Notes: generated by a model from the sequence alone, not told the origin. A stretch of 32,000 bases of DNA from Halogeometricum borinquense DSM 11551 (GCF_000172995.2 NC_014731.1:150001-182000), one strand, 5' to 3'; positions 3,309 through 20,594 are shown, numbered from the stretch's first letter. Numbers and translations: made by a program.

Positions 3309-5609
3309 TCAGTCGTCGTCTTCAGCCATCACGCGGTCGGGAATTGTCCCCGACGGCGCTTCTCCGGGCGTCGAGACTGGACGGAGCGTGAACCGTTTTT
3401 TCACCATGTCGTAGGCGAACACGAGCGTTCCGAGGATAATCATCGTGTCGCCCGGGAGGCGCGCCCAGAATAGAAGCTGGACGAGTTCACCGTTGTAGAA
3501 CGCGAGACTCCGAGCGGCGGCGTAACTCTGCGTAAACGCCGTCTCCAACTGCAGGAAGCCGACGGGAAGGACGCTCACGAACACCATGACCGCTAACCCG
3601 ATGTTCCAGAGCCAGAACGCCCACCGGAGACGCTTGCCAGTCCACTGAGCGGGCTTTGCGGAAATTCGAAGCATGTACGTCGCCATCCCCAATGCGAGGA
3701 AACCGAACGCACCGAACATGGCTGCGTGTGCGTGCCCGACCGTGAGATACGTCCCGTGCTCGTAGTAGTTGATGAGCGGGAGGTTGATGAAGAAGCCGAG
3801 AACGCCAGCGCCGACGAAGTTCCAGAACCCGCTGGCGATGATGAACATGAACGGGAGCGTGTACGGGAATCCGTCATCGCTGGTCGCCAGCGCTCGGTAC
3901 TGCCCCATCGCCTCAAACAGGATGAGGATGAGCGGAATGAGTTCGAGCGTGGAGAAAACCGATCCGAGCGGAACCCACACGTCGGGTTGGCCGACCCACC
4001 AGTAGTGGTGCGCCGCGCCGATCACACCCGATCCCATCACAAACAGGGCTTGGAACGCCACGGCTTTCTCGGCAGAGCGCTTTTTCAGGAGCCCCATGCT
4101 GACGAGGGTGAGGCCGACGATAGAGACGATGAAGAACTCGAACGCGCCTTCGACCCACATGTGGACGACCCACCAGCGCCAGAACTCCGTCATCACGATG
4201 TTCGTCTGCGGGGTATAGAGCATCCCAGCGGTGAACAGAAGGCCGATAGAACCGCCCGCGTAAACGATGAGATGGGCGAGACCGTAGCGGGATTCCCGTT
4301 TGATGAGCGGCCTGAATCCCCGCCAAACGAGCGCCGTCCACAGCACGAATCCGACGAGCAGGCCGACCTGCCAAAGGCGACCGACCTCCAGATATTCTAG
4401 TCCTTCGTTGCCGAGAATCCACCAGAGTGCGCCGTCGATGTATCCTTGCGCGCCGAACCAGATGCCCGCAAGTCCGCCGACGGCCGCGACGATGAGCGCA
4501 CCCAACAGGACGTGGATGTACGTCTTCTGACGAGGTGGTTCGTAGTTAGTCAGAAGTGGCGGCAGGAACAGTCCGGCCCCGAGCCACAGCGACGCAATCC
4601 AGAGAATAGCGAGATCCAAGTGGAACGTCTTTGCCAGCGAAAAGGGGAGAACACTGATGAGTTCGACACCGAACAGTTTCTCGATGCCGAAGAAGGCGTG
4701 GCGTTCGACGTAGTAGTGCGCGAGTAATCCACCGAGTAACACTTGGAGTGCGAACAACGCCCCCGCGAGCGGGATAAAGCGGGTTGCGGCACGCTGGCTG
4801 GGCGAAAGCGAAATTTCGTCCGGCGGTGGGACTTCGATGCTCGTTATCTCTGGTTCGGGAAGTTCGACCGAGTTGTAGAGCCAGACGCCGATACCGACGG
4901 CCGCAACCAGCAACACCATGCTGATGACGCTCCACGTCATCGTCGAACCGGTCGGAGCGTTACCGGCTGCGGGGTTGTACGGCCACTCGTTCGTGAAACT
5001 GTGATCGCTTCCGGGGCGATCCGTATGAGAGATCCACGCCGTCCACATCGCGAAGTCGGCGAACCGACGAGCGTCTTCAGCCGATCCGATGAAGTCCGCT
5101 GGGAGGCCACGCTCGGCCGATCCTTCGTGGTATCGCTGGACATACTCTTCGCGGGCCTGCTCATGGGCGTACACTTCAGCGGCCGAGTACCGAATCGTCT
5201 CGGTGTTCTTCGCGAGTGACTCGTCTAAGTCCGCACGAACGAGGCTGTTCACACTCGCCTGTTCGGCAGTATCGAGTTTCTCGTACGCCGACCCGTGACG
5301 CTCTTGCGCGTAGTACTCGCGCATATACTGGACCTTCAAGTCCAGGGCGTCGGCCGTGTAATCGACTCCGTAATAAGCTCCGTTACCGAGGATGGAGCCG
5401 TGGTTCATCAGTCCGTCCTTCTGGAACGCTATCTTCCCGTTCTGTACCTGTGACTGAGTAACGATGACGTCGCCGTCCGGTCCGACGACTTCCTTCGGGA
5501 TGGGCGGAACGTGCTGCGAAGAGTAGTACGCGCCGACACCCATCACCACGAGATTGATGATGAAGACGGCGACGAGCGCTTTCGCAATCGTTTGGCGACT
5601 GACTTTCAT
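3309..5609 (-). CDS. norZ: Quinol-dependent nitric oxide reductase (qNor, single-subunit NorZ/NorB type)
   Basis: 766 aa with an N-terminal TM helix plus the extension typical of qNor (GLMNHGSILGNGAYYGVDYTA). The heme-copper oxidase core has about 12 TM segments and His ligand blocks HYWWVG and GHAHAAMFGAFG. Confidence 0.9.
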   Translation of the reverse strand: MKVSRQTIAKALVAVFIINLVVMGVGAYYSSQHVPPIPKEVVGPDGDVIVTQSQVQNGKIAFQKDGLMNHGSILGNGAYYGVDYTADALDLKVQYMREYYAQERHGSAYEKLDTAEQASVNSLVRADLDESLAKNTETIRYSAAEVYAHEQAREEYVQRYHEGSAERGLPADFIGSAEDARRFADFAMWTAWISHTDRPGSDHSFTNEWPYNPAAGNAPTGSTMTWSVISMVLLVAAVGIGVWLYNSVELPEPEITSIEVPPPDEISLSPSQRAATRFIPLAGALFALQVLLGGLLAHYYVERHAFFGIEKLFGVELISVLPFSLAKTFHLDLAILWIASLWLGAGLFLPPLLTNYEPPRQKTYIHVLLGALIVAAVGGLAGIWFGAQGYIDGALWWILGNEGLEYLEVGRLWQVGLLVGFVLWTALVWRGFRPLIKRESRYGLAHLIVYAGGSIGLLFTAGMLYTPQTNIVMTEFWRWWVVHMWVEGAFEFFIVSIVGLTLVSMGLLKKRSAEKAVAFQALFVMGSGVIGAAHHYWWVGQPDVWVPLGSVFSTLELIPLILILFEAMGQYRALATSDDGFPYTLPFMFIIASGFWNFVGAGVLGFFINLPLINYYEHGTYLTVGHAHAAMFGAFGFLALGMATYMLRISAKPAQWTGKRLRWAFWLWNIGLAVMVFVSVLPVGFLQLETAFTQSYAAARSLAFYNGELVQLLFWARLPGDTMIILGTLVFAYDMVKKRFTLRPVSTPGEAPSGTIPDRVMAEDDD

Positions 5610-5766: not shown

Positions 5767-6045
5767 TCAGTCAACGTACAACGAGTAGAGGATAATCCCG
5801 AAGCCGACAGTGGTAAATAGACTTTCGACGACGAGCGCGAGATTCGGGTCGAGCGGAAGAAGTTGATCGACGACGCCCCCAAAAATAGCACCGAGGGTAA
5901 CAACGCCGAAACCGATTGCGAGCGCCCGAAGCGCCGGTGATCGAGTCCGCCTGTACGCTTTGAATGCATGATACGTAATAGACCCACCGAGCAGGAGGGC
6001 GAGCGTCTTGAGAACGACGAGCGCCGTTGCGACGTTCGGGGTCAT
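5767..6045 (-). CDS. Small membrane protein (3 hydrophobic segments), co-transcribed with the upstream wHTH regulator
   Basis: 92-aa ORF. Its ATG overlaps the stop of the 6042-6509 gene (ATGA, 4-nt overlap). It is hydrophobic throughout. Confidence 0.7.
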   Translation of the reverse strand: MTPNVATALVVLKTLALLLGGSITYHAFKAYRRTRSPALRALAIGFGVVTLGAIFGGVVDQLLPLDPNLALVVESLFTTVGFGIILYSLYVD

Positions 6046-6509
6046 GTCTCTTTTTGCACCTCAGACCACAGTTCGGACAGACGCTCTTCGGGCGACTGAT
6101 CTCGGTGTTCGATGATCAGTTCGATGGCGTTGTCTTCGGTGAGTGTGATTCTGACTTCGTCAAACGCGAGAATGTATCGCGTAGTGTGTCGGCCATCGGT
6201 TCGCAACTCGACCTGCTCTTCGAGGAGTGACGCCTCACTGAGGAGATCGAGCTTTCGGTACGTGGTCGAAAGCGGGACATCACAGGCGTCTGCGATGTCG
6301 TTTGCCGTCATCGCTCCATCGATGTGTTCGATGATCGTCCGGCAGTCTGGATCATCAAGTGCGTCTAACACGTCTTGTGTGTCCGGCGCGTCGGGAGCGA
6401 ACGGGTCACGTTCCATAGATTCTGTCCGGGCTAAAGTCGATTGTTTCGGAGTCAATTGGTAGGCCATCTGTCTGAGTTTCGTCCCGTCGTCTGGAGTGAG
6501 CGGAACCAA
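6042..6509 (-). CDS. Winged helix-turn-helix transcriptional regulator (ArsR/TrmB-like)
   Basis: The segment DVLDALDDPDCRTIIEHIDGAMTANDIADACDVPLSTTYRKLDLLSEASLLEE matches the ArsR-type wHTH pattern. The protein is acidic, 155 aa. Confidence 0.75.
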   Translation of the reverse strand: MVPLTPDDGTKLRQMAYQLTPKQSTLARTESMERDPFAPDAPDTQDVLDALDDPDCRTIIEHIDGAMTANDIADACDVPLSTTYRKLDLLSEASLLEEQVELRTDGRHTTRYILAFDEVRITLTEDNAIELIIEHRDQSPEERLSELWSEVQKET

Positions 6510-6559: not shown

Positions 6560-7216
6560 TCATGGGTGTGGAGATTCTATCGTCGTCCCGTCGAGGTCCT
6601 CCAAGAACTGCTTTACAATCTTCTCCTCGGCGCGATGCAACGTCTCGCTACACGTTGACTTCGCCAGTTCGAGCGTTTCGGCGAGGTCGGTGAGCGAACA
6701 CTCCCGCGGTGTGTCGTAGTAACCACGTTCGACGGCAGCACTCACCAAGCGTAACTGCCGTTCGGTCAGCAACTGTTCGGGTTCGATATGCTGTCGGATC
6801 TCGTTGACAGTGAACGGAATACCGAACTCATCCAGTTGCGTTCCGAGTTCCGAGAGACGGTGTTGTGGAGCCGTAAGTTCCCACTCCGCCTGCCCGTCCT
6901 GAATTGTAAAAGGCATCGTCAACGGAACGCCCGAGTCCTGTACCGGAAAGAGGAGCAAGGGCATCGTCGTCTCGAACTGGACGAGTACCGTATCCTGGTA
7001 CTGCTGGAGGATTTCGAGTTCGACCACCGAATCGCTGTCCTGGATGTCGGAGACGACATCCTGCAAGTCTGGAGCCGTAATCTCTGCGAGTCCCACTCCC
7101 GCTTCGTCGCCAGTGAGTGCAGACAAGATACGAACCGTCGCGTCCGGGTGCGCACGTGTGACGTCGCCGATCCAGATACCGTCGGGAATCGTCACCGTGA
7201 GATTTGCTCGTGGCAT
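6560..7216 (-). CDS. Bat-like (HTH_10) DNA-binding transcriptional regulator
   Basis: The C-terminal LTERQLRLVSAAVERGYYDTPRECSLTDLAETLELAKSTCSETLHRAEEKIV is the bacterio-opsin-activator-type HTH common in haloarchaea. The N-terminal domain has no Cys cluster. Confidence 0.8.
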   Translation of the reverse strand: MPRANLTVTIPDGIWIGDVTRAHPDATVRILSALTGDEAGVGLAEITAPDLQDVVSDIQDSDSVVELEILQQYQDTVLVQFETTMPLLLFPVQDSGVPLTMPFTIQDGQAEWELTAPQHRLSELGTQLDEFGIPFTVNEIRQHIEPEQLLTERQLRLVSAAVERGYYDTPRECSLTDLAETLELAKSTCSETLHRAEEKIVKQFLEDLDGTTIESPHP

Positions 7217-7225
7217 TGTCTCAAT

Positions 7226-7237
7226 CGAATATATTCA
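7226..7237. promoter_or_regulatory. Operator-like or TATA-like element next to the Bat-like regulator start
   Basis: CGAATATATTCA lies 10-21 nt upstream of the regulator ATG. It could equally be a TATA element. Confidence 0.3.
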
Positions 7238-7260
7238 GGTCCCATACCAAGTAATATTGC

Positions 7261-7272
7261 CGAACATGTTCG
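7261..7272. promoter_or_regulatory. Perfect palindromic operator CGAACATGTTCG
   Basis: The 14-bp perfect palindrome ccgaacatgttcgg (7260-7273) sits in the divergent intergenic region between the Bat-like regulator and DUF2249. A half site CGAACACTATCG is at 7302-7313. Confidence 0.6.
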
Positions 7273-7350
7273 GCCAAACTGGCAGCGGGTCGAGGTTGCG
7301 ACGAACACTATCGGCACAAGGGGTATCTTTGACTCGGAGAAATACCGTGT

Positions 7351-7587
7351 ATGAGCTCAGAGATGCCCGAGAGAGAAACCCGCGAACTAGACGTACGAGA
7401 GATAGAGGGTGAACCGTTCGGAGAGATTGTGGCAGCACTTGATACGCTCTGCGAACACGAAACGCTGGTACTGGTCAACAGTTTCGAGCCAGTTCCACTC
7501 TACGACGTACTCGAACAGCGGGGATTCACGTACAAAACATCGCAGGAGGGGAGCGAGGAGTGGCACGTGAGAATTACGCACGCCTGA
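7351..7587 (+). CDS. DUF2249 domain protein
   Basis: 78 aa. RELDVREIEGEPFGEIVAALDTL...LVLVNSFEPVPLYDVLEQRGF matches the DUF2249 pattern I recognise from denitrification and hemerythrin neighbourhoods. Confidence 0.75.
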   Translation: MSSEMPERETRELDVREIEGEPFGEIVAALDTLCEHETLVLVNSFEPVPLYDVLEQRGFTYKTSQEGSEEWHVRITHA

Positions 7588-7647
7588 GGCAAACGACTCT
7601 ACGCGACCGGCCAACCGCGTCCGTGATCTAAAATACTCGACTCCGGT

Positions 7648-7926
7648 TCAGGGAGGCGTGTGCCAGATAACCGTCGCAACGAACTCGTCTGCTTCGACGG
7701 TCTCGAAATCGTAGCCTCTGTCGGTCAGTTTCGGGTACAGATGCTGTGGCGCACGGTCGTTCATCTGCAGGAGAACGGTTTCATCGTCTAGTTCGGTCAC
7801 CCGTTCGAGAGTGTTGCGAAGCGGTTTCGGTGGCGGAAGCTCCCTCGTGTCGAGCGTCTCCATCGGCCGGTCATCCGGTGCGCCCGTTTCTTCGACAATT
7901 CGTGTCAGGACTCCCATACGAGTCAC
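7648..7926 (-). CDS. DUF2249 domain protein (second paralogue)
   Basis: LDTRELPPPKPLRNTLERVTELDDETVLLQMNDRAPQHLYPKLTDRGYDF matches the same pattern. An alternative start (METLDT) is at 7863. Confidence 0.7.
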   Translation of the reverse strand: MTRMGVLTRIVEETGAPDDRPMETLDTRELPPPKPLRNTLERVTELDDETVLLQMNDRAPQHLYPKLTDRGYDFETVEADEFVATVIWHTPP

Positions 7927-7955
7927 TCAGTCGGCAAGGATGCAGACGATTGTCC

Positions 7956-7967
7956 CGAACACGTTCG
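7956..7967. promoter_or_regulatory. Perfect palindromic operator CGAACACGTTCG
   Basis: It lies in the 79-bp divergent region between DUF2249 (minus strand) and the radical SAM gene. Confidence 0.6.
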
Positions 7968-8005
7968 GCAGTTCGCTTTCGCACACAGCAATCGGAGTTG
8001 CCACT

Positions 8006-9118
8006 ATGAATCCCAGAGCGATCGACACGTCTCAGCGACCGTTCGTCCTCGTGTGGGAACTCACGCAGGCGTGCGAGTTAGCCTGCAAGCACTGTCGGGC
8101 CGACGCGAAACCGAATCGCCATCCGGACGAACTCACCACAGCGGAGGGACAGCAACTACTCGACGAGGCGGCCCAGTTCGGTGACGGGCAACTGGTCGTC
8201 CTCTCGGGTGGGGACCCACTTGCTCGGGAGGATGCCGCCGAACTCGTACAGTACGGAACCGACGCGGGTCTTCGAATGACGCTGACGCCGAGCGGAACGG
8301 CGTCCCTCACCCGTGACAGCATCGATGAACTAGCGGACGCGGGACTCCAGCGTGTTGCACTCAGTATCGACGGCGGATCCGCGGAGGCACACGACGCGTT
8401 CCGAAAAGAGAACGGGAGTTTCGATCAGACGGTCGCCGCGGCGGAGGCGGCGAAGTCGGCCGGGCTTCCGCTCCAAGTGAACACAACCGTGTGTGCGGAG
8501 ACGGTGGACGAACTCCCGAAGATACGCCAGTTGGTTGAGGATTTAGGTGCAGTACTCTGGTCTGTGTTCTTCCTCGTCCCAGTTGGACGCGGACGCGTCC
8601 TTGACCCTATCTCACCAGCACGCGCCGAGGGCGTGATGGAGTGGTTAAGCCACGTGGCCGATGAAGCACGGTTCGGAGTCAAAACGACCGAAGCCCCGCA
8701 CTACCGGCGCGTCGTCGCTCAGCGTGGAAGCGACTCGACTGACCGGCCGTCGGCGGACAGTATCGGTCGGCGGGCCGGAATCACCGCCGGCAACGGGTTC
8801 GCATTCGTCAGTCACATCGGCAAGGTGTACCCATCGGGCTTTCTGCCGCAATCAGCCGGAAACGTCCGAGAGCAAAGCGTCGTAGACATCTACCGGAATT
8901 CGGATTTATTCCGGTCGTTGCGCGATCCCGACGCACTCCGCGGTAAGTGCGGTGCGTGTGAGTTTCGGCATCTCTGCGGCGGGAGTCGATCACGGGCGTT
9001 CGCGTACACGCAAGACCCCTTGGAGTCGGACCCCCTCTGTGACTACGTCCCCGACGGGTACGAGGGCCAACTACCCGAACAGACGTTCACTGCACGAGAT
9101 GCATCGACCGCCGACTGA
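8006..9118 (+). CDS. Radical SAM/SPASM domain enzyme (AhbD/NirJ-like; probably the TIGR04053-type family)
   Basis: CELACKHC is the CxxxCxxC radical SAM cluster motif. Also present are the GGDPL glycine-rich SAM motif and a C-terminal Cys cluster GKCGACEFRHLCGGSRSRAF...PLCDY (SPASM). The start was trimmed to MNPRAID at 8006, because the longer ORF from 7811 overlaps the divergent gene and the operator. Confidence 0.85.
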   Translation: MNPRAIDTSQRPFVLVWELTQACELACKHCRADAKPNRHPDELTTAEGQQLLDEAAQFGDGQLVVLSGGDPLAREDAAELVQYGTDAGLRMTLTPSGTASLTRDSIDELADAGLQRVALSIDGGSAEAHDAFRKENGSFDQTVAAAEAAKSAGLPLQVNTTVCAETVDELPKIRQLVEDLGAVLWSVFFLVPVGRGRVLDPISPARAEGVMEWLSHVADEARFGVKTTEAPHYRRVVAQRGSDSTDRPSADSIGRRAGITAGNGFAFVSHIGKVYPSGFLPQSAGNVREQSVVDIYRNSDLFRSLRDPDALRGKCGACEFRHLCGGSRSRAFAYTQDPLESDPLCDYVPDGYEGQLPEQTFTARDASTAD

Positions 9119-9413
9119 ACGGTCCGCTGACGCACCCGCTGATTCGATTTCCGGAACCGAACTCGACATCGAGACAGCCCAAGAGACGATCCGCGCCAGT
9201 GGTGAGAGTATCAAACGGGACGAGTTGGAGCGTGCGTTCGCTACGCTCGAATCGGAGGGAGAACTCACGACCGAGCAACGGAGAATTGTCGAACGGATGG
9301 CGACAGAAATCGTAGACGAAATCCTCGCCGCCCCCGAATCGATGTTAGAGACTGACAAATCAGCGGACCGAACAGCGCAAACGGTAGTTGAACTGTTCAG
9401 CACCGACCGATAG
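9099..9413 (+). CDS. Small helical protein resembling the C-terminal dimerisation domain of glutamyl-tRNA reductase (HemA)
   Basis: 104 aa. LTTEQRRIVERMATEIVDEILAAPESMLE...AQTVVELF follows the HemA C-terminal pattern (LsxEQ...v..lt..ivnkllh.P...lk....LF). Its ATG lies 20 nt inside the radical SAM gene's 3-prime end. Confidence 0.55.
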   Translation: MHRPPTERSADAPADSISGTELDIETAQETIRASGESIKRDELERAFATLESEGELTTEQRRIVERMATEIVDEILAAPESMLETDKSADRTAQTVVELFSTDR

Positions 9414-9428
9414 ATCGAATCGGTCGGT
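9402..9428 (+). terminator. Strong hairpin spanning the stop codon of the 9099-9413 ORF
   Basis: accgaccgat / atcggtcggt form a perfect 10-bp stem with a 7-nt loop. The 3-prime arm can alternatively pair with 9433-9438 (gtcggt/accgac). Confidence 0.4.
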
Positions 9429-9513
9429 ACTGACCGACACCGAGAGGTACAGTCATCGAAGCGAATAGATTCATCACAAGCTTGAGGGAGACAACCGGTT
9501 ACGTTCAGATGTT

Positions 9514-10056
9514 ATGGAACGAGACGACCGATCGGTAAACCGTCGTACGATTCTCCGAGCGACTGGGGCGAGCGTCGTGGGCGTGGCGTTAGCTGGGTGT
9601 ACCGGAGGCGGAAACGGCAGTACCGAACAACCGGAGAACGAAGAAGACAGTTCGAGTACGAAAACTGCCGAAGACGAAAGCGGTGATGCGGCCGAATCGT
9701 CCGGTGGGTCGTCGGACTTCGGCGGATGGATGGACAACGTGAGTAACTTCGAGAGCGTCACCGACGCTACTGGAAAAGACAAAGTGACCGTGAAAGTAGG
9801 TGCCAAAGGAAACGGTGGTGCTTACGCGTTCGCCCCGCCTGCAATCCGAGTCTCAAGTGGGACGACCGTCGTCTGGGAATGGACCGGAAAGGGGAGCTTT
9901 CACAACGTCGCTGCCAAGGACGGGAGTTTCAAGAGCGAACAAGTCAATAAGAAAGGACACACCTTCGAACACACGTTCAAGGAGAGCGGAACGCACAAGT
10001 ACGCCTGCACGCCGCACGAGCCGATGGGCATGAAAGGCGTCGTCGTCGTCGAGTAA
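9514..10056 (+). CDS. Halocyanin (type-1 blue copper protein), Tat lipoprotein
   Basis: The signal is NRRTILRATGASVVGVALAGCTGG (twin-arginine plus lipobox), followed by an acidic linker. The cupredoxin ligands are H (FHNV) and C-x2-H-x4-M (YACTPHEPMGM). Confidence 0.9.
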   Translation: MERDDRSVNRRTILRATGASVVGVALAGCTGGGNGSTEQPENEEDSSSTKTAEDESGDAAESSGGSSDFGGWMDNVSNFESVTDATGKDKVTVKVGAKGNGGAYAFAPPAIRVSSGTTVVWEWTGKGSFHNVAAKDGSFKSEQVNKKGHTFEHTFKESGTHKYACTPHEPMGMKGVVVVE

Positions 10057-10103
10057 CCTCGGAAATCACGCTTCTATCGTTTTCTCAGTTCGGTGAAAGC
10101 ACG

Positions 10104-10430
10104 TCACTCAACGTATACGCGAGTGACATGACCACCGCACCCGCACTGCTGGATGTGTTCCCACGAGAGGTCGTCCCCGTAGGCTTCGTCCAACGCGTCG
10201 AAGAGGTACTCCGAAGGATGGCCGTGATCGCCGTGAGTGACGAGATTGACGTGGTTTCCGGGTTCCGTGTGCTCGATAGCGTCTATCGCCTGTGAGACGA
10301 CCAGATCAACGTCCACGGCGTGCTGCGGTTGTTCGAGGTTGGCCGACCACGAGTTATCGTGCGTGCGGTCGGTGACTGGTGTCGGTTCGTCGTGGCCGTG
10401 GTCCGAACTGTGAGATGAGTGCATCTTCAT
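10104..10430 (-). CDS. His-rich protein with a C-terminal CGCGG motif (candidate radical-SAM-modified protein)
   Basis: 108 aa from MKMHSSHSSDHGHDE, with internal THGDHGHPSEY and the C-terminus HIQQCGCGGHVTRVYVE. There is no signal peptide. The start was trimmed from the 193-aa ORF because the upstream part covers the operator pair and is not protein-like. Confidence 0.7.
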   Translation of the reverse strand: MKMHSSHSSDHGHDEPTPVTDRTHDNSWSANLEQPQHAVDVDLVVSQAIDAIEHTEPGNHVNLVTHGDHGHPSEYLFDALDEAYGDDLSWEHIQQCGCGGHVTRVYVE

Positions 10431-10466
10431 TTGAACGGACGCGACGAACGAGGAAAGAAACGCGGC

Positions 10467-10489
10467 CGAACATGTTCCGAACGTCTTCG
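10467..10489. promoter_or_regulatory. Two overlapping operator sites (CGAACATGTTCC and CGAACGTCTTCG)
   Basis: The sites are 10467-10478 and 10478-10489, sharing one base. They lie 37-59 nt upstream of the CGCGG-protein ATG, in the divergent region toward the membrane protein gene. Confidence 0.55.
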
Positions 10490-10622
10490 GGTGGAATCCT
10501 ACATTCGGCGAAGTCGAACGGTGAGACATGGCTGGCGTTCTGTTGAGAAACATGGCCGATGTACCGTCGAGAAACAGAAGGGACACCGAACGCATAGCGG
10601 GTGGAGACGGGTGACGGCAGCA

Positions 10623-11789
10623 ATGATTTCGCGGTGGTCCAGACGGTACGTACTCGTGAGTGCTGTGTTCCTCACAGGGTGGCAAGCGGGCGTCGTCGTC
10701 GGAATCCCGCGACGGACTGAGGTGGTTTTGGGACTATTCGGATTCGTCTTACACGTCATCTTCGGAAAGGCGTACTCGCTCGTTCCGACGTACTTCGATC
10801 GAACGGTGGCGTTTCCGTACGCGCCCGCCGTCCAGTTCCCGCTCGTTGCTGTCGGAACGGGCGGACTAGTCGCCTCATCGCTGGGTGTCGGACCGCCGTG
10901 GACCGGTGCGGCGGGTGCGATCCTGTGGTGTCTAGGTATCGGAACGTTTCTTTTTACCCTCGCTTGGACGATCCGAGAAAATCCGACCGGACGCGAAACG
11001 GCGACCGGCGACGCCAACGCTGAACGGCGGCCGGTAGACAGACTGGCAAACGGATTCGTCCCGGTCGCGCTGCTGTATCTACTCATTGGGGCGTACGAGA
11101 CGCTCGCGGTGTACACCGCTTTGCCACCCTTTCTCGACGGCTATCCGCCGCAGGTGACGCATTTACTTGCGGCGGGAACCGCTGGCGTGATGTTGTTTGC
11201 TCTTGGCTTCCGAATGCTCCCCCGATTTATGGTCGCCCACCCACCGCGCTGGCCCGTCGGTGTGGTTCTCTCTACGGGCGCAGTCGGCCCGGTGCTACTG
11301 GCCGCGGGACTCGGTAGCGGGTGGCTGTTTCAGCTCGGTGCGCTGGTCCAAGCCGTCGCCGTGGCCGGATTCGCCACCGCCGTCGGAACGCTGTACATCC
11401 GCTCTGATCGACGTCGCGTCGGATTCTACGGTGTCCTCGCCGGGGCTGGATTCGGCGTGCTCGCCATCACTCTCGGTCTCCTGTTCGCGTTCAGTAGGAT
11501 GTTGCCGTCACTCGTACGTGCGCATCTGCGTCTGAATCTCCTCGGGTTTCTCGGTCTCACTATCGTCGGCGTTACCTACCAGTTCTATCCGCCCGCTGTT
11601 GGAAATCTCCCGGGCGCGTCGAATCGAAGTGCTTTCTACTCGGTTATTGCACTCGCAGGCGGACTGCTCGCGCAACTCGTCGGTATCGGTGCGGGGGCCC
11701 CTCCACTAACGAACCTTGGCCACGTGCTGGCGTTGGGTGGGTCGCTCCTGTTTTTGTATCTAATCGTCGCCGCGTTGGATGCGAGGTGA
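10623..11789 (+). CDS. Polytopic integral membrane protein (about 12 TM by eye; possibly NnrS-like, unverified)
   Basis: 388 aa from MISRWSRRY, with about twelve hydrophobic segments. His residues sit at the starts of TM2 (HVIFG), TM6 (THLLAAG) and TM10 (AHLRLN). No soluble domain is visible. Confidence 0.65.
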   Translation: MISRWSRRYVLVSAVFLTGWQAGVVVGIPRRTEVVLGLFGFVLHVIFGKAYSLVPTYFDRTVAFPYAPAVQFPLVAVGTGGLVASSLGVGPPWTGAAGAILWCLGIGTFLFTLAWTIRENPTGRETATGDANAERRPVDRLANGFVPVALLYLLIGAYETLAVYTALPPFLDGYPPQVTHLLAAGTAGVMLFALGFRMLPRFMVAHPPRWPVGVVLSTGAVGPVLLAAGLGSGWLFQLGALVQAVAVAGFATAVGTLYIRSDRRRVGFYGVLAGAGFGVLAITLGLLFAFSRMLPSLVRAHLRLNLLGFLGLTIVGVTYQFYPPAVGNLPGASNRSAFYSVIALAGGLLAQLVGIGAGAPPLTNLGHVLALGGSLLFLYLIVAALDAR

Positions 11790-11794
11790 GATTC

Positions 11795-11806
11795 CGAACA
11801 CGTTCG
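11795..11806. promoter_or_regulatory. Perfect palindromic operator CGAACACGTTCG
   Basis: It is upstream of the multicopper oxidase gene and identical to the site at 7956-7967. Confidence 0.55.
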
Positions 11807-11881: not shown

Positions 11882-11893
11882 CGAACGTGTTCG
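11882..11893. promoter_or_regulatory. Perfect palindromic operator CGAACGTGTTCG
   Basis: It lies immediately downstream of the TATA-like element, a position compatible with repression. Confidence 0.55.
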
Positions 11894-11962: not shown

Positions 11963-13114
11963 ATGAGAGATCGCATTGGTGCCCCCGGAACGGGCCTCTC
12001 CCGACGAGAGTTCCTCGCAGCGACCAGCGGCCTGGGCACGGCCGCACTCGCCGGATGCCAAGCCCCGACGAACCAAGCGAGCGCGAAGGCCGCTCGACCC
12101 TCGACGACAGCCAACGGCGGCGATAGCAGTCTTCCGACAACCAGTCCACCGGAGGTCGTCAACGTTGACGAACAGGGCGGGAAGGTGACGCTGAAGACCC
12201 AGCCAGCCGTTCACGAGGCGCATCCACTCGACTCGATGGGCGGCCCGGTAAAACTACCGCGCGTGTGGGCGTTCCAAGCCGACGACCGCGACCCCTCCGT
12301 TCCCGGCCCCATAATCCGAACCACCGAAGGCGAGGAGATGGAGGTAACGCTGGACAATACGGACGGGAAGCGGCCGCATACGGTACACTTCCACGGTGCC
12401 CGGAAGGCGTGGAAAGACGACGGTGTCCCGACGACGACCGGGATTACGGTCTCACCCGGCGAGAAGCATACGTACACGATTCCGGCGAACGTGCCGGGGA
12501 CACACCTCTATCACTGCCACTTCCAGACGCATCGCCACATCGACATGGGGATGTACGGCATTTTCCGGGTCGATCCCAAGGGGTACGAACCAGCCGACAA
12601 GGAATACTTCATGACCGTCAAAGAGTGGGATTCACGTCTCAACCGTATGATGGCGGGCGAGGATGTGTCCTACTCGCCGCGGAACCGGACGCCGGACGTG
12701 TTCACAGTCAACGGAAAAGTTGCGCCGCGAACACTCCATCCAGAGGACGGGTCACCGCTTGTCGTCGAACACGGCGATTCAGTGCGAGTTCACTTCGTCA
12801 ACGGCGGCTACATGAGCCATCCGTTGCACATCCACAACCACCGCTTCCAGCGCGTGGAGAAAGACGGTGGAACAGTTCCGGAGGCTGCCCGCCACGAGAT
12901 GGACGTGACGAACGTCGCGCCTGCGGAGCGCCACACAGTCGAGTTCACCGCGGACGCCGATCCAGGGATCTACCTCATGCACTGCCACAAGGTCGAGCAC
13001 GTGATGAACGGGAACTTCTACCCCGGCGGAATGCTCACCGGGGTCGTCTACAAGGAAGCGATGAACACGGACATCTTCGACCAACTGATGCAGTACGCGG
13101 GATACGAGCAGTAA
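11963..13114 (+). CDS. Two-domain multicopper oxidase, Tat lipoprotein
   Basis: The signal is LSRREFLAATSGLGTAALAGCQ. Cu motifs are HTVHFHG, LYHCHFQTHRHIDMGM, HPLHIHNH and MHCHKVEH. At 383 aa it has two cupredoxin domains rather than three. Confidence 0.85.
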   Translation: MRDRIGAPGTGLSRREFLAATSGLGTAALAGCQAPTNQASAKAARPSTTANGGDSSLPTTSPPEVVNVDEQGGKVTLKTQPAVHEAHPLDSMGGPVKLPRVWAFQADDRDPSVPGPIIRTTEGEEMEVTLDNTDGKRPHTVHFHGARKAWKDDGVPTTTGITVSPGEKHTYTIPANVPGTHLYHCHFQTHRHIDMGMYGIFRVDPKGYEPADKEYFMTVKEWDSRLNRMMAGEDVSYSPRNRTPDVFTVNGKVAPRTLHPEDGSPLVVEHGDSVRVHFVNGGYMSHPLHIHNHRFQRVEKDGGTVPEAARHEMDVTNVAPAERHTVEFTADADPGIYLMHCHKVEHVMNGNFYPGGMLTGVVYKEAMNTDIFDQLMQYAGYEQ

Positions 13115-15970: not shown

Positions 15971-16146
15971 TATTGGCGGTTGATTGCGTTCTGCGAACGC
16001 TGGAACGGATAGCGGCGTTCAAACGATTCACGAACGTGCCAGAGCAAATCGCGTTGGTTCTGACTCGTGTTAGAACTAGGAAAGTATTTCCGGAAATTCC
16101 CAAGACTATAGTGAAAATTTAAGTTGCTGTGCTGGTTGGGCGCAGT

Positions 16147-17778
16147 ATGCACGAAGATATTGCCGCGATACGAGACGACTTTCCGATACTGAGTCGGTCA
16201 GTCGGTGACGAACAACTCGTCTACCTCGACAATGCCGCGACGACGCAGACCCCAGAGCAGGTTTACGACGTGTTTGAGGAGTTCTACGCCGGATACAACG
16301 CCAACGTTCACCGCGGAATCCACACGCTGAGTCACGAGGCGTCCGTCGCCTACGAAGAAGCCCACGATAGACTCGCCGAGTTCATCGGTGCGTCGGGCGG
16401 ACGCGAGGAACTCATCTTCACGAAGAACACGACCGAGAGCATCAATCTCGTGGCGTACGGCGTCGGGTTGAACGAACTCGGCCCGGGCGATAACGTCGTC
16501 ACGACGGAGATGGAGCATCACGCGTCATTAGTCACATGGCAACAAGTTGCAAAGCGAACTGGTGCCGACGTGCGGTTCATTCGCGTGGACGACGACGGGA
16601 AACTCGACTTGGAACACGCGGCGGAGCTGATAGACAACGATACGCAACTTATGTCAATTGTTCACGTTTCGAACGTCCTCGGAACGGTCAATCCCGTCGA
16701 GGAATTGACCGAGTTAGCCCACGAGCAGGACGCGCTCGTATTCATCGACGGCGCACAGGCGGTGCCGAACCGACGGGTCGATGTCGAGGAGATCGATGCC
16801 GATTTCTACGCCTTTTCGGGGCACAAGATGGCCGGACCGACCGGGGTCGGCTGTCTGTACGGCAAGCATCACCTCCTCGAATCCATGGAACCGTTTCTCT
16901 ACGGTGGCGAGATGATTCGGCACGTCACCTACGAGGATTCGACGTGGAACCGGCCCCCGTGGAAGTTCGAGGCAGGTACGCCGCCCATCGCGGAGGGGAT
17001 TGCCCTTGCTGCCGCTGCTGACTACCTCGATGACGTCGGGATGGACTTCGTCGAGGAGCGTGAAAACGAACTCGCACAGTACGCGCTCGAACGTCTCACC
17101 GAGCGTGACGACGTCGAAGTGTACGGCCCACCGCTTGGTGAAGCGCGGTCGGGGCTCGTCGCATTCAACCTCGACGGCGTCCACGGCCACGACCTCTCGG
17201 CGTTACTCGACGAACGCGGCATTGCCGTCCGCGCGGGCGACCACTGCACGCAACCCCTGCATGACAGGCTCGATATCCCTGGGTCCGTTCGTGCGTCGTT
17301 CTACGTCTACAACACCACCGACGAGATAGACCAGTTGCTTGACGCACTCGACGTTGCGCGGGACGAACTGGACTCGCACCTCGCCTCCGAGCAGTACCAC
17401 GACTTGGTGTACGAACACTACCGTAACCCACAGAATACGGGCGGGCTCTCGAATCCGACGTTCACGAAGCACTCAGAAGAGACCTCCTGCGGTGACGACG
17501 GCGAGTTCCACGTCGATGTCGCCGAGGACGGAACCATCGAAAACATCGCGTTCGAAAGCGAGAGTTGTGCTGTCAGTAGCGCCGTTGCTAGCATGCTGAG
17601 CGAACGACTCGAAGGCATGTCGCTCGAGGAGGTCGCCGAACTCGATGGATTCGTAGACGAAGTCCTCGACGGAACGTATCCTGACATCCGCCGTGACTGC
17701 GTTGTCGGCCCCGAAGAAGTCATCTGCGAAGCGGCGCGTGAACAGATGGACGGATCAAACGGACGCGCAGTGTTGTAA
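16147..17778 (+). CDS. sufS: Cysteine desulfurase SufS fused to a C-terminal SufU/IscU-like scaffold domain
   Basis: Present are LDNAATTQ, the PLP-lysine block FSGHKMAGPTG and the catalytic Cys block RAGDHCTQPLH. The C-terminal ~140 aa carry NifU/IscU-type Cys residues (SCGDDGEF, ESCAVSSA, RRDCVVGPE). An alternative start is at 16129. Confidence 0.85.
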   Translation: MHEDIAAIRDDFPILSRSVGDEQLVYLDNAATTQTPEQVYDVFEEFYAGYNANVHRGIHTLSHEASVAYEEAHDRLAEFIGASGGREELIFTKNTTESINLVAYGVGLNELGPGDNVVTTEMEHHASLVTWQQVAKRTGADVRFIRVDDDGKLDLEHAAELIDNDTQLMSIVHVSNVLGTVNPVEELTELAHEQDALVFIDGAQAVPNRRVDVEEIDADFYAFSGHKMAGPTGVGCLYGKHHLLESMEPFLYGGEMIRHVTYEDSTWNRPPWKFEAGTPPIAEGIALAAAADYLDDVGMDFVEERENELAQYALERLTERDDVEVYGPPLGEARSGLVAFNLDGVHGHDLSALLDERGIAVRAGDHCTQPLHDRLDIPGSVRASFYVYNTTDEIDQLLDALDVARDELDSHLASEQYHDLVYEHYRNPQNTGGLSNPTFTKHSEETSCGDDGEFHVDVAEDGTIENIAFESESCAVSSAVASMLSERLEGMSLEEVAELDGFVDEVLDGTYPDIRRDCVVGPEEVICEAAREQMDGSNGRAVL

Positions 17779-19334: not shown

Positions 19335-20594
19335 ATGGACAAAGAGGGGTCACAGGACATCGCTGCGGAAATTTTCGCACAGGAGGACCCAATCTTCAGG
19401 AACAAGTCATTGGTGGAAGTTGAACACGTCCCGAGTCCGGAACGAATCGTCGGTCGTGACGACGAAATTCGTGCCCTTTCGACGGAACTCCGGTCGGCGG
19501 TCAACGGCGACTCTCCTGAGAACGTTATCCTGTACGGCGAGACGGGGACGGGAAAGAGCCTCGTCGCAAAACACGTGGCGAAGGCTGCCAAATCCAATGC
19601 CGGTGACGTTCGAATCGGAACTGTCTACGTGGACTGCTCGACTGACGATACCGAGACGCAGGCGATCTCGACTATTGCCCGAACGCTGAACGACGAATCA
19701 GAGACTGACATTCGCGTTCCCGAGACGGGCCTCGCAAAAGCGGCGTACTACACGCGACTCTACACCATTCTCGACAAACTGTACGATGTCGTCATCATCA
19801 TCCTTGACGAGGCAGACATGCACCCCGACGACCAGATTCTCATGTCTCTCTCCCGGGCGGTCGAGACGGGGAAGACGGGCTGTCGAATCGGTCTCATTGC
19901 TATCAGCAACAAGGTTCGGTGGGCTGAGGATCTCAACGACCGAGTCAAATCGTCGCTACAACCGCGCGAACTCAACTTCCACTCCTACGACGCGAACCAA
20001 CTCCGCGCGATACTAGGTCACCGGCGGGATGCATTCCGTGAGGGAGTTCTTTCGGACGATGTGATCCCACTCTGTGCCGCATATGCGGCCCAAGATCATG
20101 GCGACGCCCGTCAGGCTATCGACGTGCTTCGAAACGCGGGAATGCTTGCTCAGCGCGACGGATCGGATACAGTCACCCGCGATCACGTCGAGGATGCGAA
20201 GATGGAGGCCGAGAAAGATCGTTTCCGTGATCTCATCGGCGGGTTGACCGTCCAGAAAAAACTCGTCCTCTCGGCGGTAACTGCCCTACATAAGGGCACA
20301 GACGATGATGAATTCTCGATGGCACAGATAATCGAGACGTACACCAAACTCTGTGAGGCGACCGGAACTTCTACCCGGTCGGATCGTCGCGTTCGAGACT
20401 TCGTGCGACGACTCGCCTTCCTCGATATCCTCGAACTCCGTAAGCAGAATCTCGGACGGGCGGGCGGTATCACCATCTATGCCCGTCTCCAACCTGACCA
20501 CGACTTGGATATCGTCCACCAGACAGCGATGGATGACGATCAGTTCGTGGTGGGCGAAGCCGAGTCCGAAAACGCGTCGCTCGATTCGTTCTGA
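19335..20594 (+). CDS. orc1: Orc1/Cdc6 replication initiator
   Basis: Present are the Walker A motif GETGTGKS, the Walker B motif IIILDEAD and a C-terminal winged-helix region. The 419-aa length and ORB context fit Orc1/Cdc6. Confidence 0.92.
   Translation: MDKEGSQDIAAEIFAQEDPIFRNKSLVEVEHVPSPERIVGRDDEIRALSTELRSAVNGDSPENVILYGETGTGKSLVAKHVAKAAKSNAGDVRIGTVYVDCSTDDTETQAISTIARTLNDESETDIRVPETGLAKAAYYTRLYTILDKLYDVVIIILDEADMHPDDQILMSLSRAVETGKTGCRIGLIAISNKVRWAEDLNDRVKSSLQPRELNFHSYDANQLRAILGHRRDAFREGVLSDDVIPLCAAYAAQDHGDARQAIDVLRNAGMLAQRDGSDTVTRDHVEDAKMEAEKDRFRDLIGGLTVQKKLVLSAVTALHKGTDDDEFSMAQIIETYTKLCEATGTSTRSDRRVRDFVRRLAFLDILELRKQNLGRAGGITIYARLQPDHDLDIVHQTAMDDDQFVVGEAESENASLDSF

Follow-up and report, generated by a model that had tools for sequence, protein, structure and literature searches.

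Gene content of the block

We analyzed a 32,000-nucleotide stretch of Halogeometricum borinquense DSM 11551 DNA (NC_014731.1:150001-182000, hereafter the window; positions are counted from its first nucleotide), focusing on a block at 7351–11789 that encodes a radical S-adenosylmethionine (SAM) enzyme (8006–9118, + strand) and a 108-residue cytoplasmic protein carrying a CGCGG motif (10104–10430, − strand). A check of open reading frames (ORFs) showed that all seven that a first-pass annotation, made from the sequence alone, had named in the block are present, in place or a few bases off: two DUF2249 genes, the radical SAM gene, a small helical ORF, a halocyanin gene, the CGCGG gene and a membrane protein gene. 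The radical SAM, DUF2249, halocyanin and membrane proteins, together with an HTH_10 regulator encoded next to the block, each matched an H. borinquense database entry with full identity. In Pfam and NCBIfam scans, the block was flanked by nirK (1840–2952, −; TIGR02376, 391.8 bits), qNor (3309–5609, −; Pfam NorB_cytochrome_c-like and COX1), a two-domain multicopper oxidase gene with Tat signal and lipobox (11963–13114, +) and a two-domain halocyanin gene. The module is a further instance of an island that has already been described in haloarchaea, and the radical SAM enzyme, initially called uncharacterized, has a known role.

The radical SAM gene encodes a probable AhbD-type heme b synthase

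The radical SAM protein scored 498.5 bits over its full length against TIGR04053 (cut-off 395), and the identical protein WP_013440767.1 is named TIGR04053 by NCBI. The second-best family was AhbD (TIGR04545), with 347.2 bits and a curated cut-off of 500, followed by NirJ2, a haloarchaeal 'pseudo-SAM' family, NirJ, AhbC and NirJ1, while the first peptide-maturase models, PqqE and MftC, reached only about 135 bits. AhbD being the closest characterized model (347 bits), the enzyme groups with AhbD and NirJ, which is one half of the outcome that the first-pass annotation had itself named as speaking against a protein-modifying enzyme. The N-terminal CELACKHC corresponds to CX3CX2C and the C-terminal CGACEFRHLC-x20-C to CX2CX5CX20C; the patterns CX3CX2C and CX2CX5CX20-38C are common to all AhbDs (PMC10452713). 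Fix et al. reported that non-methanogenic archaeal AhbDs, including those of Halorubrum, replace three AuxI cysteines by Glu, Ser and Ser (PMC10452713). The same AuxI-less pattern was found in the window enzyme (KTTEAPHYRR, VYPSGFLP and CGGS) and is kept in haloarchaeal, Thermus and Bacillus members, and the enzyme would thus carry one auxiliary cluster. Since the AuxI cysteines are replaced, the Pfam SPASM score (21.2 bits) falls just under the cut-off of 21.5. The C-terminal Cys cluster that had been read as SPASM-type is therefore present, but as a truncated four-Cys version. When the sequence was searched against solved structures, only BlsE and PqqE were matched and no AhbD structure was found. 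Compared with the AhbDs of Methanosarcina barkeri and Desulfovibrio vulgaris (TIGR04545), the window enzyme shares CX3CX2C and the C-terminal CX2CX5C...C (AuxII), whereas it lacks the four AuxI cysteines, with Glu/Ser/Ser instead (PMC10452713), and stays below the TIGR04545 cut-off.

The function of the corresponding Haloferax gene has been examined genetically. Kosugi et al. deleted HVO_2144 in Haloferax volcanii; the mutant kept its aerobic growth but barely grew by denitrification or dimethyl sulfoxide (DMSO) respiration, and when protoheme was supplied it regained full growth by DMSO respiration and part of its growth by denitrification (PMC5746218). HVO_2144 lies between nirK (HVO_2141), a blue copper protein gene (HVO_2145) and norB (HVO_2147), and its promoter contains a CGAA-X4-TTCG palindrome (PMC5746218). 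Pfeiffer and Dyall-Smith assigned HVO_2144 as ahbD, 42% identical to the characterized M. barkeri AhbD, and ahbD is present in about two-thirds of haloarchaea (PMC8305020). The window enzyme is 74% identical to the product of the Haloferax gibbonsii gene at the HVO_2144 position, which is itself a TIGR04053 member (495 bits). The gene order nirK-DUF2249-radical SAM-halocyanin-nor-CGCGG-halocyanin of the Haloferax loci is that of HVO_2141...2150 and of E6P09_00775...00740. HVO_2144 and the window gene thus have the same position in a nirK-halocyanin-nor island, the same NCBIfam family and the same promoter palindrome (PMC5746218). On the other hand, the genus differs, the Haloferax CGCGG gene is located about 4–5 kb away beyond nor whereas the window copy is convergent at a distance of 1 kb, and the deletion genetics come from Haloferax while the Halogeometricum enzyme is known here from its sequence. 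Because of the HVO_2144 genetics, the family membership and the Cys pattern, the enzyme does have a published genetic function, and the statement that no role was known for it was mistaken: it belongs to the same family as the genetically defined heme b synthase HVO_2144 (PMC5746218, PMC8305020). Judged by the genetics of the Haloferax orthologue together with these sequence features, it is very likely an AhbD-type heme b synthase of the denitrification island.

TIGR04053 is also found outside haloarchaea. A tblastn search detected it on plasmids of haloarchaea (14), Thermus (20) and the Bacillus cereus group (31), and additionally in Deinococcus and Brevibacillus. The Thermus member is the 'nirJ' of nirSJM and adjoins norCBH (PMC7694296). 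In Thermus thermophilus this 'NirJ' is a TIGR04053 protein about 50% identical to the window enzyme and is likewise encoded in a nor/nir denitrification cluster, on a megaplasmid (PMC7694296); it differs in adjoining the cd1-type NirS, in bearing a heme d1 biosynthesis label by homology only, and in that its plasmid has no CGCGG gene. AhbD homologues of Gram-positive bacteria with the coproporphyrin-dependent pathway (CPD) have been described as an acquired oxygen-independent alternative to ChdC (PMC13564367), and the bacterial TIGR04053 contexts fit this view of AhbD acquisition. On a Bacillus thuringiensis plasmid (L172, 4843–17095), the TIGR04053 gene was located among adhE, nrdDG, YwiC, FprA flavodiiron, rubredoxin and Crp/Fnr genes, which make up a compact anaerobic module. 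YwiC-like genes were observed near TIGR04053 in Thermus too, and in the bacterial CGCGG contig L083.

The block carries the promoter palindrome of haloarchaeal denitrification genes

The palindrome CGAACNNGTTCG occurs exactly at 7261, 7956, 11795 and 11882, four copies in the window against 0.16 expected, and none of 100 shuffles reached four. The copy at 7261–7272, CGAACATGTTCG (inside CCGAACATGTTCGG), is located in the divergent promoter of a helix-turn-helix HTH_10 regulator gene and the first DUF2249 gene, and that at 7956–7967, CGAACACGTTCG, in the divergent promoter of the second DUF2249 gene and the radical SAM gene, 39 nt 5' of the radical SAM ATG. The remaining exact copies (11795–11806 and 11882–11893) precede the multicopper oxidase gene, as had been noticed before. 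Of three divergent promoters that had been said to carry the palindrome, those at 7217–7350 and 7927–8005 contain exact copies, whereas that at 10431–10622, which is common to the CGCGG gene and the membrane protein gene, contains only two overlapping one-mismatch copies, CGAACATGTTCC and CGAACGTCTTCG (10467–10489, starting at 10467 and 10478), 37–59 nt 5' of the CGCGG start.

This is the same motif as CGAA-N4-TTCG, or CGAAYATDKTYG, of Haloferax denitrification promoters (PMC5746218; PMC11218638). In Haloferax mediterranei it is present in the corresponding DUF2249/TIGR04053 intergenic region (PMC11218638), and CGAACATGTTCG is found between the CGCGG gene and nor (PMC11218638, Tables S3, S5). 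Across haloarchaeal loci, CGAA-N4-TTCG was detected within 350 nt 5' of the CGCGG gene in 100 of 129 cases (78%), compared with 10% of random windows. RNA-seq of H. mediterranei under denitrification gave log2 fold changes of 4.30 for the CGCGG gene and 2.78 for the radical SAM gene, together with 8.06 for nirK, 5.73 for nor, 8.65 and 3.24 for the DUF2249 genes of the nirK/nor cluster and 4.16 for the halocyanin E6P09_00760; neither the CGCGG gene nor the radical SAM gene is discussed in that paper (PMC11218638). For Haloferax, earlier work has therefore already described the palindrome and the DUF2249 genes, as well as the denitrification-dependent induction of the radical SAM and CGCGG genes. 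The promoter palindromes assign the block of the window, and the CGCGG gene in the 100 of 129 loci, to the denitrification regulon, and the induction values are those of H. mediterranei only. We conclude, with high confidence as far as the motif is concerned, that the block is controlled by the known palindrome.

For comparison of neighborhoods, 87 haloarchaeal CGCGG loci with at least 5 kb on either side were collected, neighbor families were counted by targeted tblastn and strict ORF clustering, and co-occurrence was counted per locus and per plasmid replicon. The HTH_10 regulator was the commonest neighbor of the CGCGG gene (46 of 87 loci). The window copy (6560–7216, −; Pfam HTH_10, E 2e-18) is Bat-like without PAS or GAF domains, and the helix-turn-helix regulator at the corresponding place in H. 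mediterranei, E6P09_00735, has been proposed as a denitrification regulator; the window protein is thus a candidate for binding the palindrome. Beside it, a DUF7521 membrane protein gene (5767–6045, −) and an ArsR-like HTH_20 regulator gene (6042–6509, −) overlap by 4 nt. These two families were present in 14 and 23, respectively, of the first 81 CGCGG loci, frequently beside the HTH_10 regulator, and may represent an additional regulatory unit within the island.

The CGCGG protein is a conserved folded domain

The CGCGG protein scored 138.9 bits against TIGR03995 (cut-off 70) and also belongs to PF26005 of a newer Pfam release, with the motif at residues 96–100; a Halogeometricum database entry is 97% identical. 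With both proteins above the cut-offs of their families, the pairing of TIGR04053 with the CGCGG family that the first-pass annotation had named was correct. The family is small: at 50% identity, 1.84 billion proteins yielded 103 representatives, and a pattern scan across 185,579 species genomes gave 341 stretches with relatives. Most of the listed members come from haloarchaea, and those from named bacteria belong to Bacillaceae such as Neobacillus, Evansella, Anaerobacillus and Microaerobacter. From Bacillaceae to haloarchaea, conservation extends across the domain (residues 28–102) in the segments NWS..LE, YVNLVT, G.P and CGCGG[HY]V.RV; the invariant positions are W28, V61, T65, C98, G99 and G100, and C96 shows at least 90% conservation. 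The description of the protein as His-rich holds for haloarchaeal members, where alone the His-rich stretches occur, but in the alignment it is not a feature of the whole family.

An AlphaFold2 (AF2) model predicted a compact beta-alpha-beta-alpha-beta-beta arrangement, an 85-residue alpha/beta domain, with a predicted local distance difference test (pLDDT) score of 91.8. In the model, the motif (C96-G-C98-G-G) forms the exposed turn of the last hairpin, and a conserved loop with T65, G70 and P72 would lie beside it. A Foldseek search of this model against the PDB gave nothing below E 0.01 and only weak overlaps with Rossmann-like methyltransferases. A short leader with a variable, unstructured core, as in the precursor of a ribosomally synthesized and post-translationally modified peptide (RiPP), was not found, nor was a RiPP cassette: Pfam and NCBIfam scans of the window genes revealed no protease or exporter family, and the radical SAM gene is not adjacent. 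Because the predicted fold is compact and confident and residues are conserved throughout the domain, the modeled protein is a folded protein and not a leader/core peptide. Literature searches with the identifiers TIGR04053 and TIGR03995 found nothing, 'CGCGG' combined with 'radical SAM' gave no protein-family paper by titles and abstracts, and no mention of HVO_2143, 2146, 2148 or 2149 was found. In one database protein, P0186, a CGCGG domain is combined with a cupin domain, and this may be a real fusion. Two other apparent fusions, P0140 (CGCGG-radical SAM) and P0142 (membrane protein N-terminus-CGCGG), have junctions that look like frameshifted read-through and were given little weight.

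A different use of this hairpin has been proposed, in which the radical SAM/SPASM enzyme acts on the CGCGG Cys pair or on a neighboring hairpin residue to give a thioether, a Cys-derived cofactor or a chaperone for denitrification. The NCBIfam name 'CGCGG family putative rSAM-modified RiPP protein' speaks for this, as do the invariant C98-G-G on the exposed hairpin and the existence of SPASM enzymes, such as anSME and QhpD, that modify folded or large proteins. The pair also resembles maturases and their substrates (PqqE/PqqA, MftC/MftA, QhpD/QhpC and anSME/sulfatase) in combining a radical SAM enzyme that has a C-terminal Fe-S domain with a small Cys-containing partner, often encoded directly upstream. 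In contrast to those pairs, the SPASM domain of the window enzyme is truncated and single-cluster, and its nearest relatives (AhbD, NirJ2, AhbC and NirJ) are all tetrapyrrole side-chain enzymes. Moreover, AuxI, which in some SPASM maturases is the cluster in contact with the peptide substrate, is missing from the enzyme (PMC10452713), and rescue of the orthologue deletion by protoheme (PMC5746218) is expected of a heme synthase, not of a protein maturase. None of our results supports modification of the Cys pair, which is less likely for a conserved folded domain without leader/core architecture.

The CGCGG gene is linked to ahbD in haloarchaea

An AhbD-type radical SAM gene was present in the flank of the CGCGG gene in 49 of the 87 haloarchaeal loci. 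In 30 of them it was less than 300 bp away, every time 3' of the CGCGG gene on the same strand, and this adjacency spans Halococcus, Haloarcula, Halorientalis, Halomarina, Halolamina and Halostella. At the replicon level, 13 of the 14 haloarchaeal TIGR04053 plasmids also carry a CGCGG gene, often tens of kb apart, and 13 of the 37 CGCGG plasmids carry the radical SAM gene. The suspected linkage of the two genes in haloarchaea is therefore above chance. The operon-like arrangement and the shared replicons would agree with an enzyme and its substrate as well, but the pairing is absent in Bacillaceae, whose CGCGG genes have no radical SAM gene nearby, and the Thermus and Bacillus TIGR04053 plasmids lack CGCGG genes. 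Taken together with the fold and the protoheme rescue, these data make modification of the CGCGG protein by the enzyme quite improbable.

Outside haloarchaea, the neighborhoods were of other kinds. In one bacterial contig, the CGCGG gene is located directly 3' of a NirJ1/AhbC-like radical SAM gene, and in a higher-GC bacterial contig it lies beside genes for Crp, two heme-copper oxidase (HCO)-like membrane proteins, YwiC, a cupin, three DUF2249 proteins and NirK. The idea that the CGCGG Cys pair supplies AuxI ligands in trans was rejected as a general rule, since the Thermus and Bacillus plasmid TIGR04053 proteins without CGCGG share Glu/Ser/Ser.

Several further neighbors of the CGCGG gene were recorded. 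A TIGR04347 'pseudo-SAM/SPASM' paralogue (655–691 bits), whose relatives are AhbC and NirJ, was near it in 15 of 87 loci and in further shorter loci. It adjoins ahbD in the loci inspected (L010 11865–12935, L116 4563–5678, L051 11531–12601), and L051 contains two more NirJ/AhbC-like copies. In Halobaculum and Halobellus, an unannotated protein of about 209 residues is encoded directly 3' of CGCGG, with no radical SAM gene adjacent (L006 10331–10960, L002 10408–11028, L007 10376–11011). It had no Pfam or NCBIfam match; its TPTTQFCPQT motif is reminiscent of DUF59 Fe-S assembly proteins. The recurrent small neighbors in Bacillaceae had no Pfam match. A hemerythrin-domain protein of about 181–185 residues is encoded 3' of CGCGG in Anaerobacillus (L088 8309–8854, after a gap of 18 nt) and in a metagenome contig (L084 2083–2640, about 200 nt), which points to a connection with O2, NO or iron-centre chemistry in which no radical SAM enzyme takes part.

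Other genes of the island

The small helical ORF (9102–9413, +), whose start overlaps the radical SAM stop, matched Pfam GlutR_dimer (E 2.3e-8, 34.7 bits, cut-off 22.9), the dimerization domain of glutamyl-tRNA reductase (HemA). The ORF is coupled in translation to the radical SAM gene, and ORFs of this type (about 100 residues) were also found directly 3' of the radical SAM gene in Halococcus, Halostella, Halomarina and Halohasta; examples are L010 11408–11746, L078 11490–11783, L023 11313–11801 and L075 5630–5944. The GlutR_dimer-like ORF is a further hint of a tetrapyrrole context, and its product could tie AhbD to control of the first tetrapyrrole step.

The gene at 10623–11789 (+) encodes a membrane protein of 388 residues. 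Its AF2 model (pLDDT 92.2, predicted TM-score 0.91) has 12–13 helices, and in Foldseek the top 41 PDB matches were all HCO subunit I or NorB proteins (query TM-score, TMq, 0.61–0.75; E down to 6e-6), indicating the HCO subunit I fold of 12 transmembrane helices (TMs) with three-fold pseudosymmetry. As had been proposed, His residues are located in TM2, TM6 and TM10: H44, H180 and H301 are the only conserved ones, one per four-helix unit. The six His residues for two hemes and CuB of heme-copper oxidases were not found, there being three. NnrS or COX1 membership was ruled out by the absence of any Pfam match at E 10 and of any NCBIfam match at E 0.01. According to the model, the protein has an HCO fold without a binuclear centre and no CuB site, and it would bind at most one bis-His heme. 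It resembles NnrS and related 12-TM families with HCO homology in its fold, its few His residues and its DUF2249 and denitrification neighbors, and differs from them in the missing Pfam NnrS/COX1 match and the distribution of His over the four-helix units. Pei, Li, Kinch and Grishin (2014), cited in PMC11218638, are said to have linked proteins with HCO homology to DUF2249 and NO detoxification. The membrane protein was encoded in 29 of the 87 loci. A second membrane family of about 450 residues (454 in L029 11280–12644) was observed in 25 of 87 loci, with a weak Pfam COX1 match (E 4e-8). In hhalign, its TM1–4 align with TM9–12 of the window protein, and distant relatives are encoded in the bacterial NirK/DUF2249 cluster (L083 9196–10485 and 12001–13233).

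Both DUF2249 proteins matched PF10006 (cut-off 29.5). The first (7351–7587, +, 78 residues) scored 75.2 bits (E 3.7e-21) and its type was present in 35 of 87 loci; the second (7648–7926, −, 92 residues, or 89 by an alternative gene call) scored 53.5 bits (E 2.2e-14), showed weak TusA similarity and was represented in 31 of 87. The Tat/lipobox halocyanin (9514–10056, +; TIGR03102, 143 bits), a blue copper electron carrier with an RR motif and an LAGC lipobox, occupies a position orthologous to HVO_2145 and E6P09_00760. The H. mediterranei cluster E6P09_00735-00795 likewise combines a helix-turn-helix regulator, halocyanins, CGCGG, nor, TIGR04053, DUF2249 and nirK genes, has the same motif and is induced throughout by denitrification. 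Its gene order is different, and its table names neither an HCO-like membrane protein nor a GlutR_dimer-like ORF.

Some of the Haloferax and Halobacterium loci contain a highly similar copy of the multicopper oxidase (75–79% identity). The gene at 16129–17778 (+), a few kb away from the island, encodes a fusion of a cysteine desulfurase (SufS, 559 bits) with a SufU/IscU-like scaffold domain, which could be a local Fe-S supply for cluster-rich anaerobic enzymes. An Orc1/Cdc6 replication initiator gene is present at 19335–20594 (+). The island is apparently carried by a secondary replicon, since one database entry for the DUF2249 protein at 7351–7587 places it on a plasmid of H. borinquense DSM 11551; the source plasmid is absent from PLSDB.

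Discussion

We propose, with a probability of roughly 0.55, that the block combines an AhbD heme synthase with denitrification accessories, and that the CGCGG protein is an accessory partner of the enzyme and not a RiPP. Within this proposal, the role of the CGCGG protein is the more tentative part. Because of gene order, replicon co-occurrence, co-induction and a second case beside a heme-type radical SAM gene, it may be the partner of the AuxI-less AhbD clade, as a redox relay or a heme hand-off factor, and we regard this as possible but somewhat short of an even chance. The wider proposal that the protein is an unrecognized accessory subunit of AhbD, serving as electron acceptor, relay or hand-off factor in denitrifying haloarchaea and facultatively anaerobic Bacillaceae alike, appears rather unlikely.

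Several points weigh against an AhbD with a CGCGG partner. According to the label given by NCBI curators, the CGCGG protein is a target of radical SAM modification, and the Foldseek search against the PDB found no informative relative of its fold. The enzyme stays below the TIGR04545 cut-off. The sub-cut-off score may reflect the composition of the TIGR04545 model, as non-methanogen AhbDs form a group with a distinct Cys pattern (PMC10452713). In the window itself, the radical SAM and CGCGG genes do not form an operon, since they converge across 986 nt that hold two other genes. More than 50 Thermus and Bacillus plasmids encode TIGR04053, all of them without a CGCGG gene, and no AhbD/NirJ-type radical SAM gene was found near CGCGG in the 29 low-GC bacterial loci. 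We know of no reported CGCGG partner for the AhbDs of methanogens or sulfate reducers. Since ahbD is present in about two-thirds of haloarchaea (PMC8305020) compared with 341 CGCGG stretches, AhbD does not generally depend on CGCGG. Finally, 26 of the 87 haloarchaeal loci have no island gene near CGCGG; in some, helicase, MutS-like and IclR-like genes flank it, and on a Halorussus plasmid its surroundings are unrelated genes.

In another explanation, the CGCGG protein is independent of the radical SAM enzyme: a small cytoplasmic thiol/metal protein of the anaerobic or nitrosative-stress regulon. Such a protein might bind or buffer Cu, Fe or NO species, or act as a CxC redox switch, and be a neighbor of ahbD by virtue of a shared island. 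In line with this, the palindrome was found 5' of CGCGG in 21 of the 26 loci without island genes, the gene stands alone in the 29 low-GC bacterial loci, and a hemerythrin gene follows it directly in Anaerobacillus and one metagenome contig. The bacterial cluster with Crp, HCO-like, YwiC, cupin, DUF2249 and NirK genes, the CGCGG-cupin protein P0186 and the haloarchaeal His-rich loops adjoining the hairpin point in the same direction. However, the strict order and adjacency with ahbD across several genera exceed what co-regulation requires, an unrelated bacterial CGCGG gene adjoins another heme-type radical SAM gene, and no recognizable metal-binding or redox fold was found by Foldseek against the PDB. 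We consider an independent function unlikely. A copper or NO cofactor role of the CGCGG protein, suggested in the first-pass annotation, is speculation, and the His-rich segments behind it are confined to haloarchaea.

In the AhbD reading that we prefer, the block would be the accessory half of the haloarchaeal NirK/qNor island, switched on in anoxia via CGAA-N4-TTCG. The radical SAM enzyme's SAM-bound [4Fe-4S] cluster would generate a 5'-deoxyadenosyl radical, which would oxidatively decarboxylate two propionates of Fe-coproporphyrin III to vinyl groups. Protoheme could thus be made with neither O2 nor H2O2, under conditions in which ChdC does not function, and AhbD would furnish heme to qNor and other heme b enzymes of anaerobic respiration. 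The CGCGG protein would be part of this regulon; in a third of haloarchaea its gene would also share the operon, in the order CGCGG, ahbD and HemA-dimerization-like gene. We favor a function as a thiol/metal redox relay that takes up electrons from both oxidative decarboxylations; a second possibility would be a factor for the hand-off of coproheme or heme. The DUF2249 pair, the degenerate HCO-like membrane protein and the halocyanin would be nitrite/NO-responsive accessory or electron-transfer parts.

Two annotation traditions disagree on these genes: NCBI names a peptide-modifying radical SAM enzyme and a RiPP target, while haloarchaeal curators and heme biochemists name AhbD. Settling the names would correct thousands of annotations, and a misleading 'natural product' lead would disappear. 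Should the CGCGG protein act alone, the anaerobic/NO regulon would contain a small Cys protein that is widespread and strongly induced. If it assists AhbD, the database label 'rSAM-modified RiPP' would be a misnomer, and the finding would address the electron acceptor and the second decarboxylation of AuxI-less enzymes. The HemA-dimerization-like protein would then link the heme step to control of the first tetrapyrrole step, and the pair would explain how denitrifiers supply heme to NO reductase while the oxygen-dependent ChdC is unusable.

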